Shown piece by piece: positions 2,632 to 37,437 of a DNA stretch of 64,000 nucleotides. Each line of letters starts with the position of its first letter. Within the stretch, counting starts at the first letter, position 1. A program made the translations under genes and the position numbers. Under the pieces are notes generated by a model. It saw only the letters and a program-made list of their open reading frames with translations, was not told the DNA's origin and made no database searches. The DNA comes from a virus (Duplodnaviria > Heunggongvirae > Uroviricota > Caudoviricetes): the IMG/VR virus record IMGVR_UViG_3300045988_156427; one strand, 5' to 3'.

Positions 2632-2943
2632 TTATTTCATCATGGAAGCGGTTAACGCTTTGGACCTTGCTGAACTGATTGAAAGGGCATTGTTTACCTT
2701 ACCCAGGAGTTCGCCAAATTCCCCCATCACTCTAGTAAGCCCGCGCCGCGCTTCCTCCTCCGTTGCATTCATCACAAAATGTTCAGCACTCCGCATGCTT
2801 TTAACGGGGAACGCAACAGATATCGAGTCGATATCAGGCATCCTATCGCTCAACTTTACGGTGACAATGACAGATGGCGACAGAATATTAGTGCTTACAG
2901 ACAGCACTACATATTTTCCGTCGATGTTGAAATCCTTTCTCAT
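2632..2943 (-). CDS. hypothetical protein between cre and ref (c8 position)
   Basis: ORF track, 103 aa; positional only. Confidence 0.4.
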   Translation of the reverse strand: MRKDFNIDGKYVVLSVSTNILSPSVIVTVKLSDRMPDIDSISVAFPVKSMRSAEHFVMNATEEEARRGLTRVMGEFGELLGKVNNALSISSARSKALTASMMK

Positions 2944-2959
2944 ATGCCACCATAAATAT

Positions 2960-2976
2960 CAAAGAATTAGAGCAAT
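2960..2976 (-). promoter_or_regulatory. C1 operator-like site, core match
   Basis: Reverse complement ATTGCTCTAATTCTTTG, 13/17. Confidence 0.4.
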
Positions 2977-2993
2977 CATTTACGCGTTAATGG

Positions 2994-4025
2994 CTAATTG
3001 CCATCTTCCAGCAGGCGCACCATTGCCCCTGTTTCACTATCCAGGTTACGGATATAGTTCATGACAATATTTACATTGGTCCAGCCACCAGCTTGCATGA
3101 TCTCCGGTATTGAAACTCCAGCGCGGGCCATATCTCGCGCTGCTCCGACACGGGCACTGTGTCCAGACCAGGCCAGGTATCTCTGACCAGAGTCATCCTT
3201 AGCGCCGTAAATCAATCGATGAGTTGCTTCAAAAATCCCTTCCAGGGCGCGAGTTGATAGCTGGCTGGTGGCAGATGGCGCGGCAACACCATTTTTTCTG
3301 ACCCGGCAAAACAGGTAGTTATTCGGATCATCAGCTACACCAGAGACAGAAATCCATCGCTCGACCAGTTTAGTTACCCCCAGGCTAAGTGCCTTCTCTA
3401 CACCTGCGGTGCTAACCAGCGTTTTCGTTCTGCCAATATGGATTAACATTCTCCCACCGTCAGTACGTGAGATATCTTTAACCCTGATCCTGGCAATTTC
3501 TGCTATACGTAGCAGGGTATTATAAGCAATCCCAAGAAATGCCAGATTACGTATATCCTGGCAGCGATCGCTATTTTCCATGAGTGAACGAACCTGGTCG
3601 AAATCAGTGCGTTCGAACGCCAATGCCTGTTTTGCACGTTCACCGGCATCAACGTTTTCTTTTCGAATCCGCCGCATGACCAGTGAAACAGCATTGCTGT
3701 CACTTGGTCGTGGCAGCCCGGACCGACGATGAAGCATGTTTAGCTGGCCCAAATGTTGCTGGATAGTTTTTACTGCCAGACCGCGCGCCTGAAGATATAG
3801 AAGATAATCGCGAACATCTTCAGGTTCTGCGGGAAACCATTTCCGGTTATTCAACTTGCACCATGCCGCCCACGACCGGCAAACGGACAGAAGCATTTTC
3901 CAGGTATGCTCAGAAAACGCCTGGCGATCCCTGAACATGTCCATCAGGTTCTTGCGAACCTCATCACTCGTTGCATCGACCGGTAATGCAGGCAAATTTT
4001 GGTGTACGGTCAGTAAATTGGACAT
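2994..4025 (-). CDS. cre: Cre tyrosine site-specific recombinase
   Basis: 343 aa starting MSNLLTVHQNLPALPVDATSDEVRKNLMDMFRDRQAFSEHTWK, ending ...MVRLLEDGN; matches Cre as I recall it; loxP 420 bp away. Confidence 0.97.
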   Translation of the reverse strand: MSNLLTVHQNLPALPVDATSDEVRKNLMDMFRDRQAFSEHTWKMLLSVCRSWAAWCKLNNRKWFPAEPEDVRDYLLYLQARGLAVKTIQQHLGQLNMLHRRSGLPRPSDSNAVSLVMRRIRKENVDAGERAKQALAFERTDFDQVRSLMENSDRCQDIRNLAFLGIAYNTLLRIAEIARIRVKDISRTDGGRMLIHIGRTKTLVSTAGVEKALSLGVTKLVERWISVSGVADDPNNYLFCRVRKNGVAAPSATSQLSTRALEGIFEATHRLIYGAKDDSGQRYLAWSGHSARVGAARDMARAGVSIPEIMQAGGWTNVNIVMNYIRNLDSETGAMVRLLEDGN

Positions 4026-33589: not shown

Positions 33590-34345
33590 GTGGACCTGTA
33601 GATTGGGATATGAACCCGTTACAGGAGAATGCTCTTACCTGTTACGTGCTCCGTTTCGTGGAGCTAACGGCGGGTGATCGGGCCGCACCAGACTGGACTT
33701 ATTTCAGCGTTATGCTCATGCCAGAGAATCAAACTGTGATGGTCGGTGCTGAACTCCGACACAGGGTTGTAGCAAGCCCCGCAAAGCGCGCACTACTGTA
33801 GTTGCGGCACATCAGCCTGTGCATTCACCACAATGTTGAGAACACTGGTTGTCACGCTGCAACGCAACATTTATTCGTAGATTGGGATATGACCCCGTTA
33901 CGCCAGTGTTCTCAACGTTGTAGTGCCGGTTACGGTTCCGGCCAGGCCTCTTCCTCAACGGGGTGTTCTCCATACGGACTACCGTTTATTGGTCGTTCCT
34001 GCGGTTTATGTTGTGAAGCCAGATGCTTATCTTCTGGTTGCTTCAAAGAGCTGCACTTCATCACAACGGTAAGAGCACTCGATGCATTTAAGCCAAGCCC
34101 CATAAGGGAGAATGCCCTTACCTGTTGTGTTGTGATGACCGGTGCTGATCTCCGGCTTGCGGTTATTTCAGACTCTCACGGGCGTTTAATTGCCCCGCCG
34201 AACAGCTCTTTTCCGCAATAGCTGCAATGTCTTTCGCGCATCAGCCTGCGCATTCATCACAACGGTAAGGGTACTTCGTAGGGATTCGAACCCTCTGCCA
34301 AGCTCGGCGATCTCCGACGTCGCAAAATACCCTTACCTGTTGTGC
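33590..34345. repeat. non-coding repeat cluster between the TerB-like gene and the tRNA pair
   Basis: GATTGGGATATGA(A/C)CCCGTTAC at 33601 and 33881; CCTTACCTGTTGTG-like units at about 33631, 34110, 34331 and 34771; inverted repeat GTTGAGAACACTGG / CCAGTGTTCTCAAC. Confidence 0.5.
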
Positions 34346-34421
34346 TGGTGCCGATTAACGGACTCGAACCGCTGACATCCTGCTTACAAGGCAGGCGCTC
34401 TACCAACTGAGCTAAACCGGC
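34346..34421 (-). tRNA. tRNA-Thr (anticodon TGT)
   Basis: Hand-folded GCCGGTT...CTTGTAA...GGTTCGAGTCC...ACCA. Confidence 0.85.
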
Positions 34422-34423
34422 AT

Positions 34424-34499
34424 TGGCGATGGTGGATGGATTTGAACCATCGACCCGTTGATTAACAGTCAACCGCTCTAACCGCTGAGCTACACCATC
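34424..34499 (-). tRNA. tRNA-Asn (anticodon GTT)
   Basis: Hand-folded GATGGTG...CTGTTAA...GGTTCAAATCC...GCCA; 2 nt from tRNA-Thr. Confidence 0.85.
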
Positions 34500-35153
34500 A
34501 CTTGCCGGGTACGTCTCCGGCGAGGGCTTCCACCTCCGTATGCTTTTCGGCGCACCGCGCCCTGGCTGCAATTCGGTAACAGGGGATGCACAACCCTGGC
34601 TTCCAGCGTGATTAGCGCTTTCAGCATGACGGGATATACCCGTAAATTCGTGGAACTGTACCCAAAGTGCTGTTAAGCACCGCTGTTACGCTGAAAAGAA
34701 AACGCAACAGGAAAGGACGCTGACCAACAGATGGCCCCTTCTCGTTCATCTGGTTAATCACACCAGCGCCCTTACCTGTTGTGCCTCCCCGTTCCCTAAT
34801 ACACAGACGGGGACACTCTGCGGTCGATTTTTTGACGGGGGACGACTCATACCCCGTGGCATCTGGCTTCTTAGGCCGCTACCATCATCAGATCATCGTT
34901 TGCATTTACTTTAATGGTCAGTTTCTAAACCGCCGCAAAGTCGCTAACCATGACGAAAACCCTGAAAAAAAACGCCCACCCGAAGATGGGCAAACTGGAA
35001 GCTCGTAACGCACTTCGGAGTTGCCACTTAGGCGCATGGTCAACCTGGCAACTCGGTGGTTTGTCTGGGAGGACTAGGCCCAGCCATGCTTACCGCCGCG
35101 CCTGTCGCGGCTAACAGCTAAATCGCTCTATAAATCACGATTCATTGAGGCGA

Positions 35154-35182
35154 TATTACACTAATAAATTTATTAGAGCAAT
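35154..35182. promoter_or_regulatory. paired overlapping C1 operators forming a palindrome, heading the operon that runs through the tRNAs, TerB-like module and ban
   Basis: 35166..35182 reverse complement is the exact consensus ATTGCTCTAATAAATTT; overlapping plus-oriented ATTACACTAATAAATTT (15/17). Confidence 0.7.
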
Positions 35183-37437
35183 ATACCCAAAACGTCATGA
35201 GCTACACCTCGAGTGTCCCCCTTACAAGACACAGAACGTCTGGCAAAAAGAGGTTCCACTCTGAAGCCACTGTCATGATAAAGCTCTCTGATGTTTGGCG
35301 CGCCACTGTTAGTAATGAGAACCTTTGCACCTCGACGATGAGCATCCGTCAACAGAGACACCAGGCGTTTTTGCTCTTCAAACTTAAAGTCATGACCGGA
35401 ATAGTTCGTGAATCCCTCTGTATTTGGAAGCGGTTCATACGGCGGATCGCAAAAGATGACATCTCCTTCTCCGGCAGCTTCAATCACCGCTGCAAAATCA
35501 CCGCATACAAACTCAGACCGCCCTTCCGCACCGAGGAAGGCTTCCATCTCCTGTAATGGGAAATACGGAGTTTTATACTTCCCATAACCGACATTGAACT
35601 CACCGGCCTGGTTGTAACGCGTCAATCCGTTAAAACAATGTCGGTTCAGGAACAAAAACGCCGCTGCGCGATGTAAATCATCATAGACTTGTTTGTTAAA
35701 CGCATTCCGTACTGCCAGGTATCCTTCCTGTGTGTTGTAGTCCTGGAAGAAACGATGTGCCAGAGTGATAAGTGAATGCGCCTCGCGTTGCAGAGTCTTG
35801 TAAAAGTTAATCAGGTCAGCATTCACATCATTTAGCAGATTTTCCTGGTATCCGGCATTCATGAAGACAGCTCCGCCACCAACGAAAGGTTCAATCAGGC
35901 GCTTCCCTTCTGGCAAATAGCGAAAGATTTGTTCCAGAACACCAAATTTTCCACCAGCCCATTTGAATATGGACCGTTCGAATTCTGCCGCTGGTTTAAC
36001 TTTTCGCTCTTTTGTTTCACTTCCTTCTTTCTGCCGACATACGGACTTAGTAATCCGATCGCCAATCCAGCGCATTACTGGTATTGCCATACTATTGCCG
36101 ATCGCTTTGTAACGCGGTCCGTCAGCTGCAAGCATCGCGGCCTCTTCTTCGCTTAAATCTGGATAGTGATTGCGAAGATATGCCAGTTCATCTGAATTAA
36201 CTTTTTTACGCTTTTCCGTCGGGATCAACGTATGCCCATCAGGAAAACCTTGCAGCCTTTCACATTCGACAGGGGTAAGACGGCGGACAGCTACTTCTGC
36301 GTTTCTTACTTCATAGCAAACAGCTGTTGGATTTTTAGCCATTAGAGATGGTGAAGTATTCTTAGTTGCAGCATGTTGTGTACCGCTCATACGCTCAGGA
36401 AAAGCCAATGTAACAAGATGCTCATGGCTTTCTTGCTCACGTGCCCGCAATGTACCATGCCCTTCTGACCAAAAACCTGCTCCTGTGCTGCTAAAAACGG
36501 CAAGGTCAGTGGCATCTTTAAAATCTCTTGCCTTTACTGTCGATGCGGTTTCATCGTCAATATATTCCCCAAATGCTGCCATCCTGAAAGCGTTTACGGC
36601 TTTCGTCGATTTCATACCGGGTGGCATGTCAGCGTGTAGGCATGGATTTAGGCTTTCGCCACTGATTGCAGCGCCATTTGCAATAATGGCGGAAGCGATT
36701 TCCTTCTTTTTTCGGCTCGGCGCAATATTCCGGCGCACGCCTTTGAACTCAAAAAGTACCGTTGCGGGATCGAGGTCTGTTCGAGCACTTGCGACAACAA
36801 ACACGCGTCGGCGTCGTTGTGCCACTCCGAAGTATTGGGCATCAAGGATTCTCCAGGCCACCTTTCGCTGCGGTCCATAAATACAACCACACTGCGGCCA
36901 CTTTGGAGCATGGCAACCGGTTTTGCCATCCCACCGCCAGAACGCGTTACTTTTTCCTGATTCAGGTCGATCACCTGGTTCAAATGGCGCATCTTCTCCA
37001 GCCAATCCGGCAAGGAAACATCCGAAGGCGTTATCTGCCGATGACAGGACTCCTGGGACATTTTCCCAGACGATAACTGTCGGTTTGAGGAAGGACTCAG
37101 ACCGTTTGTCGTCAATTGCATTTGCAAGCTCCACATACTTCAAAGTTAGCGCGCCGCGTTCATCATCAAGCCCACCACGTAAGCCCGCGATACTGAATGC
37201 CTGACAAGGCGTACCCCCGACGAGCACATCAGGGGATTCGATTTCCCCAGCCAGGACTTTTTTGGCAAGTTTTGTCATGTCGCCAAGGTTGGCGACATGG
37301 GGCCAGCGGTGCGCAAGAACGGCAGATGGAAAAGACTCGATTTCAGCAAACCACACCGGACGCATACCCAACGGTTCCCAGGCAATACTCGCGGCTTCAA
37401 TTCCACTGCAAACAGATCCATAGCACAGCTCTTTCAC
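35173..37437 (-). CDS. dmt: Dmt, fused DNA methyltransferase (C5-cytosine-like N-terminal half, Dam-like DPPY C-terminal half)
   Basis: 754 aa; DPPY motif near C-terminus; matches P1 Dmt length. Confidence 0.8.

Follow-up and report, generated by a model that had tools for sequence, protein, structure and literature searches.

The window, 64,000 nt of DNA from a P1-like phage, contains a repeat cluster between the TerB-like gene tciA (32993–33418) and a tRNA pair, tRNA-Thr(UGU) (34346–34421) and tRNA-Asn(GUU) (34424–34499). Both flanks lie on the minus strand. An earlier note had placed the cluster between them, at 33590–34345, and every repeat listed there was found in the region. The GTAGATTGGGATATGA(A/C)CCCGTTAC unit occurs at 33598–33622 and 33877–33901 with 96% identity (repeat family D6), and copies of the GCCCTTACCTGTTGTG-like motif were located at 33631, 34114, 34329 and 34768, with the copy at 34329 immediately after tRNA-Thr. 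The longest of several inverted repeats, I1, has arms of 23 nt (33826–33848 and 33903–33925) that are 91% complementary. Furthermore, we detected two direct-repeat families that had escaped the earlier list, TTCAYCACAACGGTAAGRG with four copies and GCRCATCAGCCTGYGCATTCA with two to three. On the minus strand, which is the strand of the ban operon, all listed repeats resolve into hairpins and modules. One cassette consists of a long hairpin (H) followed by a cloverleaf-like multi-branch module (M). Four long hairpins, Ha, Hb, Hc and Hd, alternate with the modules M1–M3, a fifth hairpin, H0, is found upstream of the tRNA pair, and both tRNA genes are embedded in the array. The repeats exceed chance, since a covariance model of the module (R1) matches only here and the five hairpins fold with strong z-scores. 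While the repeats had thus been recognized correctly, their strand, the hairpin-plus-module architecture, the link to STnc100 and the wide distribution described below had been missed, and the limits required extension: the array spans 33453–34345, with related elements reaching to about 34963. The proposed co-transcription with the C1-controlled ban operon is plausible, as the minus strand carries no promoter-like or terminator-like site between 34973 and tciA and the P1 record puts P1ban/Oban upstream. The only terminator-like site on the minus strand of 32300–35300 is an intrinsic one at 34965–34992 (stem 34992–34973 followed by a T8 run), at the end of the P1 'dicF-like' region, a label taken from the P1 record and mapped by offset.

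In the P1 reference record, the same interval is annotated on the plus strand with two genes, upl and plp, including predicted promoters, and the corresponding frames (33610–33801 and 33802–34221) are open. If this annotation were correct, the region would encode two small proteins, Upl (63 aa) and the putative lipoprotein Plp (125–139 aa), and the repeats would be incidental. The Upl frame is also open in P1, Ro157c2 and CMS-2020a. However, neither frame matched any Pfam family. The Plp frame starts with TTG; in Ro157c2 it is interrupted by stops and a frame change, SJ46 and CMS-2020a have truncated versions, and P1 differs at the C-terminus. Since the frame overlaps a palindrome, part of it also matches its own opposite strand. 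Upl differs from CMS-2020a by 18 substitutions, of which 8 fall on second codon positions; the codon changes comprised 4 synonymous and 11 non-synonymous ones, which is about the expectation without selection on the protein. The annotated Met codon of Upl coincides with a 13-nt stretch deleted in Ro157c2, where the tblastn match starts at residue 4. In a P1-like plasmid that was 100% identical over a 311-nt query (34040–34350), PGAP left the stretch from tRNA-Thr to the following gene unannotated. Finally, covariation and G-U asymmetry (see below) indicate an RNA on the strand opposite to upl and plp. A conserved frame with an excess of synonymous changes was thus found for neither of them. 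These observations do not support upl and plp as genes, they agree with the earlier statement that the region has no convincing coding capacity, and we consider the protein-coding reading very improbable. Knock-down of plp, upl and trnT by CRISPRi was scored nonessential (NE) for P1 in that assay (PMC10695390), and any function is therefore accessory. P1 is a reference phage from which many annotations have taken over upl and plp as 'genes', a record that is corrected by the finding of structured RNAs opposite to them on the minus strand.

The long hairpins were characterized individually. Ha (34258–34345, minus strand; D3, D4, I8) begins 1 nt past the tRNA-Thr gene, whose called 3' end includes CCA, and is formed by the 5' arm CACAACAGGTAAGGGTA and the 3' arm TACCCTTACCGTTGTG. 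Its minimum free energy (MFE) was −42.7 kcal/mol (z = −5.05) on the minus strand versus −36.3 kcal/mol on the plus strand. Hb (34062–34130, minus strand; −34.5 kcal/mol, z = −4.65) has the arms CACAACAGGTAAGGGCATTC and GAGTGCTCTTACCGTTGTG and a loop, CTTATGGGGCTTGGCTTAAATGCATC, that Klebsiella phage 5 LV-2017 has conserved and the virulent phage SUSP2 has kept almost unchanged; the SUSP2 copy sits within a tRNA array. In one related contig, the Hb loop is identical and the stem altered with pairing kept. Hc (33826–33925, minus strand; −49.2 kcal/mol, z = −5.83) corresponds to I1 and has a 23-bp stem (CACTACAACGTTGAGAACACTGG/CCAGTGTTCTCAACATTGTGGTG), and its loop holds one copy of the GATTGGGATATGA-CCCGTTAC unit (33877–33901, D6). 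The second GATTGGGATATGA unit copy, GTAGATTGGGATATGAACCCGTTAC at 33598–33622 on the plus strand, reads on the minus strand as the T-arm-like GGGTTCATATCCC and is situated in the loop of Hd (33565–33648, minus strand; D3, D4, D6, I3; −37.4 kcal/mol, z = −3.85), whose arms are CACGTAACAGGTAAGAGCATTCTCC and GGAATGCTCTTTCCGTTGCGGTG. H0 (34697–34789, minus strand) contains the CCTTACCTGTTGTG motif that had been noted 'at 34771' and folded with −45.9 kcal/mol (z = −4.86) versus −32.9 kcal/mol on the plus strand. All five hairpins exhibited z-scores between −3.9 and −5.8 on the minus strand, and the plus strand was less stable in five out of five cases. The operon strand was also favoured by the comparison of 65 related hairpins, in which we counted 115 G-U pairs versus 14 A-C mismatches.

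Stems of H comprise 16–21 paired bases in related contigs and up to about 23 in the window. Their sequences differ widely and pairing is kept, with covarying examples such as CACAACGGGAAGAACACT/AGTGTTCTTCCCGTTGTG and CACAGGAGGGGCGATTGT/GCAGTCGCTCCTCCTGTG; on average, arms bound their own partner with −22.8 kcal/mol versus −15.7 kcal/mol for swapped arms. A mobile inverted-repeat element (MITE/REP) was rejected as an explanation because the arms differ among copies yet keep pairing, instead of being identical copies. The 3' arm of H adjoins either the GUGGUGA of M or the AGUUUUCG of element T (see below). In contigs without H, a −10-like box occupies its position, in some cases accompanied by a TTGACA-like −35 element (as read from the sequences), and these promoter-like boxes would put the transcription start at about the same nucleotide as the H boundary. 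H thus appears to define the 5' ends of M and of element T. The same GUG serves both the final three pairs of H and the initial three of M, so that the two structures cannot be fully formed at the same time. Polycistronic phage transcripts are known to carry RNase III processing hairpins, e.g., in the early RNA of T7 and in the N leader and sib of lambda. H resembles these hairpins in being an imperfect duplex of about two helical turns, in its location between functional units of a long phage transcript, and in its free sequence with conserved pairing. It differs from them in that the base of the stem is conserved (CACA...UGUG) and the loops are large and in some cases tRNA-like. Judged by stem length, free sequence and position at RNA boundaries, the anatomy of H is compatible with an RNase III site.

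According to another reading, the cluster would be a graveyard of decayed tRNA duplicates (an origin considered in the earlier note) that has no function of its own. In the tyrT operon of E. coli, tRNA-linked repeats and the rtT RNA are located downstream of tRNA genes, and the present array shares with them the fragments of tRNA 3' halves as well as the position downstream of, and the plausible co-transcription with, tRNA genes. For the loop of Ha, this idea holds: a small hairpin is accompanied there by the canonical T-arm AGGGTTCGAATCCCT, which adjoins the 3' arm, and Ha alone has a T-arm with an acceptor 3' strand, i.e., AGGG-TTCGAAT-CCCT followed by the 7-nt acceptor-like ACGAAGT. The same loop type was seen in a related contig, and SUSP2 carries the string GGCAGAGGGTTCGAATCCCT unchanged in the T-arm region of its tRNA-Ile. 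The GATTGGGATATGA unit represents a degenerate T-arm-like hairpin, with GGG-TTCATAT-CCC in the loops of Hc and Hd (a 3-bp GGG/CCC stem and the loop TTCATAT); in Hd of one relative, Ro157c2, the T-arm-like 13 nt are deleted and the stem is retained. Moreover, real tRNA-Tyr or tRNA-Ser genes occupy neighbouring positions in relatives. Yet only 5 of the 65 related hairpins have a T-arm 0–5 nt from the 3' arm, and sequence similarity to tRNAs is absent from M and from the majority of H. A cloverleaf was detected for the two known tRNA genes only (ARAGORN default, Rfam tRNA model), and an Rfam scan up to E = 10 gave neither a tRNA nor an RtT match beyond these. A pseudo-tRNA at Ha (34270–34364) was called by ARAGORN with thresholds of 80%, not by default, and this call has a poor acceptor stem and D-arm. 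We further rejected a general link between modules and tRNAs, as a same-strand tRNA within about 400–500 nt accompanies M in only 19 of 134 contexts elsewhere; most units are free of tRNA-derived sequence and occur without tRNA genes, unlike rtT. The stems are preserved via compensatory changes, which decay would not bring about. Descent from tRNAs may thus account for some loops, and as an explanation of the whole cluster it is rather improbable.

In addition to the hairpins, the array contains three copies of the module. M1 (34132–34260, minus strand) comprises a closing stem (GUGAUG/CAUCAC), hairpin 1 (GCGCA-GGCUGA-UGCGC), a variable centre of 78 nt and hairpin 2 (GCCGG-AGAUCAGCA-CCGGU), and its MFE fold is a four-way junction. 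M2 (33736–33831, minus strand) exhibits M1-like ends around an unrelated centre of 45 nt, while M3 (33453–33570, minus strand) is a diverged, STnc100-like copy located directly upstream of the ribosome-binding site of tciA, with 34 nt between its end and the start codon. In general, members of the family have a closing stem of 6 bp, two conserved hairpins with mutually complementary loops (GCUGA/UCAGC), and a hypervariable centre, of which the sampled contigs yielded 74 unrelated versions between invariant ends. The covariance model R1, built from 43 non-P1 sequences of unrelated phage contigs, gave exactly three matches in the 64-kb window, all on the minus strand, namely M1 (72.1 bits, E = 1.5e-15), M2 (65.6 bits, E = 6e-14) and M3 (25.5 bits, E = 4e-4). 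Seven pairs were changed on both sides, a value attained by 0 of 500 shuffles; the sequences had been gathered via exact patterns at one end, which limits the visible variation. RNAalifold independently predicted the three helices of M, and single-sequence MFE folds of M1–M3 arrived at the same junction; z-scores were −3.59 for M3 (−46.9 kcal/mol) and unremarkable for M1 and M2 (−0.6 and −0.2, respectively). The loop–loop pairing showed one-sided changes and no double changes. We conclude that M is a real RNA family. A short degenerate module ('Mb') proposed at 34013–34067 was dropped since neither R1 nor folding backs it. A search of the 64-kb window for antisense targets of the variable centres and loops yielded a best match of 13 nt, which was equalled by 9 of 200 shuffles and is not significant after multiple tests, so that no complementary target was identified in the window.

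A covariance-model scan, as suggested earlier, linked the array to a known family. M3 matched the Rfam model of STnc100 (RF02076) over model positions 31–147 of 206 with 39.2 bits (E = 7e-7), i.e., below the gathering score of 47, while M1 and M2 gave no match to this model up to E = 10. Both core helices of STnc100, the closing stem and the terminal CCGGG-loop-CCCGG hairpin, are kept in the alignment of M3, which shares with STnc100 the closing stem GGUGAAU...CACC and the terminal hairpin CCGGGA-GCACCCGG. Conversely, R1 matched an STnc100-like locus in a Salmonella phage with 25.7 bits, and this locus scored 35.1 bits, likewise sub-threshold, with the Rfam model. STnc100 has been described as a structural homologue of PasD (bioRxiv 10.64898/2026.05.13.724894), a group of small RNAs from prophages of pathogenic E. 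coli whose stability was Hfq-dependent on northern blots (PMC8550237). Like STnc100 and PasD, M occurs in non-coding regions of prophages; unlike them, its copies in the window are arranged in tandem inside an operon, with a long hairpin before each and without the terminator tail typical of Hfq-dependent small RNAs. The STnc100/PasD literature consulted contained no description of a hypervariable centre or of complementary loops. Apart from the tRNAs and the sub-threshold STnc100 match, the Rfam scan of the region (E up to 10) returned chance microRNA-like matches on the long hairpins and no RtT, DicF, GOLLD, ROOL or put-like match. YrlA (RF02553, threshold 69 bits), a bacterial Y RNA-like family in which a long stem is combined with a permuted tRNA-like domain, had been considered because of the long stem and T-arm, and was rejected: its sole match (25.6 bits) lies over the real tRNA genes at 34362–34479. 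GOLLD and ROOL are large structured RNAs located beside tRNA genes in phages. The array is similar in that several hundred bases of structured non-coding RNA adjoin phage tRNA genes, but differs by the lack of an Rfam match and by consisting of independent modules, the number of which varies among close relatives, instead of one large fold.

The cassette family is wide in temperate phages of Escherichia, Klebsiella, Salmonella and relatives, and is mostly unannotated in these phages of enteric bacteria. M1 is 98% identical to segments of lambdoid phages and was found, unannotated, in 1248 of 5426 complete E. coli genomes (23%); reference P1 lacks it, while M2 is present in P1, Ro157c2 and CMS-2020a. 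Elsewhere, the module occupies non-coding leaders: in mEp460 it lies downstream of the repressor, in HK620 it stands between the holin gene S and the annotated pR'/qut site, and in Klebsiella phage 5 it follows Q and tRNA-Thr and precedes a TerB gene. Comparison across P1-like genomes, another suggestion of the earlier note, revealed that the cassettes vary in number, with one to three copies of M, and that every indel among the phages P1, P7, D6, SJ46 and Ro157c2 breaks inside a repeated arm with an overlap of 22–25 nt. In SJ46, for instance, the missing interval is exactly that between the two GATTGGGATATGA unit copies. The indel ends, the variable number of M and the near identity of M1 between P1-like and lambdoid phages would all be explained if the repeats mattered mainly as DNA, i.e., as short homologies for swapping tRNA and small-RNA cassettes, with the hairpins as a side effect. 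Recombination, however, needs identity, yet H stems that are unrelated between phages still pair; the G-U excess is confined to one strand, and single modules stand behind their own promoter-like sequences where cassette exchange is not evident. We thus regard it as unlikely that DNA exchange is the main role of the repeats, although it is compatible with an RNA function as a secondary effect. The repeats also account for the way in which P1-like and lambdoid phages shuffle RNA cassettes and tRNA genes among each other.

We therefore favour, with moderate confidence, the following interpretation: non-coding RNA cassettes are lined up in tandem along the minus strand of the region and are transcribed as part of the C1-controlled ban operon. 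The data above establish the architecture, its strand, its conservation through compensatory changes and its wide distribution. As the 5' end of M directly borders on the 3' arm of H, and a promoter-like sequence replaces H where it is absent, H is probably a processing hairpin and M, by inference, the body of a small RNA; both assignments, including cleavage by RNase III and release of M, are drawn from anatomy. In a first step, H would serve as a double-strand processing site, most likely for RNase III; cleavage would remove the trailer from the tRNA upstream and liberate the 5' end of M. In a second step, M would persist as the stable core of an STnc100/PasD-like small RNA, i.e., of Hfq-associated prophage small RNAs, in which the variable centre would carry the specificity. 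As a by-product, the conserved arms may act as recombination points by which cassettes and tRNA genes are added or removed between related phages. Two of the roles that had been envisaged before, processing sites and small RNAs, both come close to this reading of the sequence.

In the window, no terminator follows any copy of M, and these copies could therefore be released only by processing, or else act in cis on the ban/tciA transcript. According to the latter alternative, H and M would not be released small RNAs but would, for instance, stabilise the long leader, block Rho or exonucleases, or aid readthrough into tciA and ban in the manner of the HK022 put RNAs. The modules are indeed always part of the long untranslated leader of an early or a late operon, in many cases shortly after a terminator, and the missing terminators of the window copies as well as the short distance from M3 to the tciA start codon fit with this idea. 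Many modules elsewhere, however, stand behind a promoter-like sequence and some are then followed by a terminator, which suggests free-standing small RNAs. Moreover, comparison with put RNA and with the cis-regulatory families of Rfam revealed no similarity, and a hypervariable centre is hard to explain if the partner is a conserved host machine. A purely cis-acting role thus has a small chance of being correct. The modules are no peculiarity of P1; the family spans phages of several enteric genera. The combination of a conserved RNA frame, a hypervariable insert and a preceding hairpin that appears to set the 5' end suggests that temperate phages share a means of producing small RNAs and of diversifying them, and the only named relatives of the family, STnc100 and PasD, were found in pathogens.

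Upstream of H0, and outside the region of the earlier note, we observed an additional element (element T, 34790–34963, minus strand) that belongs to the same unit as the cassettes in other phages. It contains a tmRNA-like resume context and a tag frame of 10 codons (34903–34871; GCA AAC GAT GAT CTG ATG ATG GTA GCG GCC TAA) encoding ANDDLMMVAA*, with the resume codon in a conserved context and a hydrophobic/alanine C-terminus. Inspection by eye placed the stop codon apparently in a hairpin loop, followed by a pseudoknot-like stretch. The tag is of the same kind as that of E. coli tmRNA (ANDENYALAA), and genuine permuted (two-piece) tmRNAs on phage contigs share the 13-base resume context TAAAT-GCA-AAC-GA with element T. 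Unlike tmRNA, however, the element T class lacks a detectable tRNA-like domain: element T showed neither an acceptor stem with G3-U70 nor a T-arm or a CCA end, and the 48 occurrences of the tag template that ARAGORN left uncalled (10-codon class) likewise yielded no acceptor stem, T-arm or CCA end. With default settings, ARAGORN detected no tmRNA or tRNA-like domain in the window or in related loci, and the Rfam tmRNA families scored 12–26 bits on element T versus thresholds of 47–50. A domain proposed by ARAGORN at 35095–34573 with thresholds of 80% (6-bp stem, G3-C70, no CCA) was rejected; it uses P1-specific sequence that is missing from other T-bearing phages. One might speculate that element T, H and M together constitute a phage-encoded split relative of tmRNA, in which a separate tRNA-shaped RNA delivers the tag template of T, but we consider this improbable. 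In such a system, the tag template would be under selection in P1-like, P22-like, Felix-O1-like and Ackermannviridae phages, and M, a T-arm hairpin of the Ha type, or host tmRNA or tRNA would bring it to stalled ribosomes; the phage could then redirect or re-label host ribosome rescue during infection. If functional, a tag template without a tRNA-like domain would pose a new question on trans-translation during infection. The phage tag templates comprised 16 distinct versions, all of them 10 codons long and conforming to the pattern A-N-[DE]-[DEN]-x-[MYFV]-[LM]-[AVM]-[AV]-A.

The repeats listed in the earlier note were all found in the window sequence: the 25-nt unit GTAGATTGGGATATGA(A/C)CCCGTTAC at 33598 and 33877, and the CCTTACCTGTTGTG-like motif at 33631, 34114, 34329 and 34768. 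We also detected two further direct-repeat families and several inverted repeats with arms as long as 23 nt. The region showed 99.6% identity to the P1-like phage JL22 and about 99% to P1 itself. In the P1 record it belongs to the operon that begins with the C1-controlled operator/promoter Oban/P1ban and continues through tRNA-Asn, tRNA-Thr, tciA/B/C, a third tRNA and the helicase gene ban. In the window the ban operon occupies the minus strand, with tRNA-Asn at 34499-34424, tRNA-Thr at 34421-34346 and tciA, which gave a Pfam TerB family match, at 33418-32993. The operon leader contains a single intrinsic terminator (34992-34973, minus strand; site 34965-34992), and everything downstream, ban included, needs read-through. 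The "dicF-like" region of the P1 record (about 34955-35056), to which the Rfam DicF model gave no match, ends in this terminator, the only strong one of the leader.

The repeats are real, and the view that the region is non-coding proved right. According to P1 annotation, the plus strand carries two genes, upl and plp, over the array. Pfam matched neither frame, and the Plp frame is interrupted or truncated in four relatives. Upl differs from its most distant copy by 18 substitutions, 8 of them at second codon positions, and the codon changes comprise 4 synonymous and 11 non-synonymous ones. In a plasmid 100% identical over a 311-nt query (34040-34350, spanning hairpin Ha, module M1 and hairpin Hb; see below), the stretch from tRNA-Thr to the following gene received no PGAP gene call. 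The genes plp, upl, trnT and tciA all received a nonessential score in a published CRISPRi screen of P1 (PMC10695390). Plp partly matches its own reverse strand because the frame overlies a palindrome: residues 9-40 match the reverse-strand translation in P7 and D6 (window 33826-33925). This self-match is artefactual, produced by the 23-bp palindrome, and offers a useful caution regarding ORFs called over hairpins.

The cluster is an array of a widespread, largely unannotated family of structured phage RNAs related to STnc100, and it is composed of two kinds of unit. The first is a long hairpin (H), with CACAACAGGTAAGG, the complement of CCTTACCTGTTGTG, as its 5' arm and CCTTACCGTTGTG as its 3' arm. 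Five such hairpins are present in the window: H0 upstream of the tRNAs, then Ha, which begins 1 nt past the tRNA-Thr gene (as called, this gene includes CCA at its 3' end), followed by Hb, Hc and Hd. All five gave folding z-scores of -3.9 to -5.8 against shuffled sequence, with the minus strand better than the plus. Directly 3' of each lies GTGRTGAATGC, the start of the second unit, M, which extends to GCCGGAGATCAGCACCGGYCAYCAC. Among viral contigs, a stem of 16-21 pairs was found upstream of M in 65 of 87 distinct contexts. Stem sequences are very different among phages and pairing is kept, with a mean binding energy of -22.8 kcal/mol for a hairpin's own arms versus -15.7 for swapped arms. 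The excess of G-U pairs (115) over A-C mismatches (14) indicates that the M-sense strand is the folding strand. The 3' arm always ends at the start of M, or likewise at the start of element T, a tmRNA-like tag template. Inspection of contigs devoid of H pointed to a -10-like box at the hairpin position, in some accompanied by a TTGACA-like -35, which would put the transcription start at approximately the same nucleotide as the H 3' end. We infer that cleavage at H would create the 5' end that a promoter makes elsewhere. Since stem length and lack of sequence constraint fit, the hairpins are candidates for processing by RNase III.

Exact-pattern scans of viral contigs located the 5' end of M at at least 120 loci and its 3' end at at least 120 further loci, many of them shared with the first scan. 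Between the invariant ends the centre is unrelated from phage to phage, and the 74 different versions counted range from about 12 to 160 nt in length. We aligned 43 of these sequences, all from phages other than P1-like ones, and built the covariance model R1 from the alignment. The alignment supported a closing stem of 6 bp, two hairpins (hairpin 1, GCGCA...UGCGC; hairpin 2, GCCGG...CCGGC) and a possible five-base loop-loop pairing, which remains a proposal because its variation is one-sided only. Two-sided changes were observed at seven pairs, equalled in 0 of 500 shuffles, and RNAalifold returned the same three helices unaided. R1 matched the 64-kb window at three sites and nowhere else, each on the minus strand within the repeat region: M1 (34260-34132; 72 bits, E = 1.5e-15), M2 (33831-33736; 66 bits, E = 6e-14) and M3 (33570-33453; 25.5 bits, E = 4e-4). 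M1 and M2 folded alone were not better than shuffles, so conservation and covariation, rather than stability, make the case for M. Apart from the tRNAs, M3 gave the sole Rfam match of the region, to STnc100 (39 bits, under the threshold of 47), covering the part of the model enclosed by the closing stem that both share. The 200-nt spacer between H0 and tRNA-Asn (34500-34700, minus strand) may represent a degenerate copy of M: its end, GCCGGAGACGTACCCGGC, resembles M hairpin 2, and a perfect hairpin, ACGGG-TATAT-CCCGT, lies within it. R1 did not detect this spacer.

The earlier suggestion of decayed tRNA duplicates fits some hairpin loops. That of Ha carries a canonical T-arm adjoining the 3' arm, and ARAGORN called a pseudo-tRNA there only with 80% thresholds. 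The GATTGGGATATGA unit forms a weak T-arm-like hairpin within the Hc and Hd loops; in Ro157c2 one copy is deleted and the stem retained. Of 65 H loops elsewhere, only 5 contained a T-arm, in each case at a distance of 0-5 nt from the 3' arm, and a tRNA gene lay near M in only 19 of 134 contexts, so the suggestion does not extend to the cluster.

Element T (34963-34790, minus strand; tag frame 34903-34871) carries TAAAT-GCA-AAC-GAT..., which encodes ANDDLMMVAA followed by a stop. The tag was found in 16 distinct nucleotide versions, which share a length of ten codons and a tag-like pattern. The scan that detected these versions also returned genuine permuted tmRNAs, whose 13-base context is identical and whose tags include ANDERFLMAA. 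T shares this resume context but has no recognisable tRNA-like domain, and none was found in the T-bearing enterobacterial phage loci. T is conserved with varied ten-codon tags in P1-like, P22-like (HK620), Felix-O1-like (SUSP2) and Ackermannviridae (T765) phages; besides the window, it lies in the compared loci L010 (1360-1410), L011 (1290-1350) and L012 (1380-1430). T is followed directly by H, and H by M, in many viral contigs as well as in HK620 and T765; in SUSP2, T and an Hb-like hairpin occur without M. A literature search found no description of a T-like element.

The RNA array also serves as a set of recombination junctions. M is present in three copies in the window, two in P1, Ro157c2, D6 and P7, and one in SJ46, and among these P1-like relatives the breakpoints of every indel fall inside a repeat. 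Missing are 34080-34252 in P1, D6 and SJ46 (between the Hb and Ha 3' arms), 34133-34325 in P7 and Ro157c2 (between the two 5' arms) and 33623-33876 in SJ46 (between the two GATTGGGATATGA units). Each of these intervals is bounded by a direct-repeat pair, indicating that cassettes are lost or gained via recombination between hairpin arms. Relatives carry added tRNA genes in the array (L003 and L006, 1638-1724; L008, 2223-2309; L002, 2408-2494), namely tRNA-Ser(UGA) in D6, P7 and CMS-2020a and tRNA-Tyr(GUA) in Ro157c2 and CMS-2020a. In D6 and P7, tRNA-Ser follows a few bases 3' of an M module, a spacing like that of neighbouring tRNAs of an array. The gene after the array appears to be itself a variable cassette. 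The tciA position is occupied by an SPFH-domain gene in a P1-like E. coli plasmid (NZ_CP033848.1; locus 2651-3311), which shares 100% identity with the window across the 311-nt query, and by a putative serine protease gene in Ro157c2.

The anatomy of the array suggests a processing hairpin joined to a small-RNA body. Transcription from P1ban would have to pass the intrinsic terminator, and the transcript would then cover T and H0, both tRNAs and the cassettes before reaching tciA and ban. Cutting of the H stems would release the tRNAs and the M modules, the latter acting as putative STnc100/PasD-type small RNAs that owe their specificity to the variable centre. PasD reportedly shows Hfq-dependent stability (PMC8550237), and STnc100 has been described as its structural homologue (bioRxiv 10.64898/2026.05.13.724894). 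Because the M copies of the window are without terminators, a cis role of the array in operon RNA stability or read-through is a serious alternative to such released small RNAs; a search for targets of M within the window found none.

Parts of the region matched 223 phage records from Escherichia, Klebsiella, Salmonella, Shigella, Citrobacter and Cronobacter. The 311-nt query matched 1248 of 5426 complete E. coli genomes (911 chromosomal and 544 plasmid places), partial matches covering mostly the M1 segment, and no annotation was present under the chromosomal matches listed. Every annotated example falls within an untranslated leader: 3' of the repressor gene in mEp460, between the annotated pR'/qut site and holin gene S in HK620, and after the late antiterminator gene and tRNA-Thr, before the TerB gene, in Klebsiella phage 5 LV-2017. 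The Hb loop of the latter is identical and its stem altered with pairing kept. The virulent phage SUSP2 likewise has an Hb-type fragment, placed inside its tRNA array. In the lambdoid Klebsiella phage 5 LV-2017, the same block (1800-2960), comprising tRNA-Thr(UGU), an Hb-like hairpin, a diverged module, a terminator and a close TciA/TerB homologue, sits between the late antiterminator gene and the lysis genes, indicating that the tRNA-RNA-TerB block moves as a unit between phage types. Near the antirepressor gene of the lambdoid phages sharing M1, Rfam matches comprised isrK and the beginning of a C4 antisense RNA (L004, 4980-5137; L005, 5022-5111); these are unrelated to the array and show that M1-sharing lambdoid phages are rich in small RNAs.
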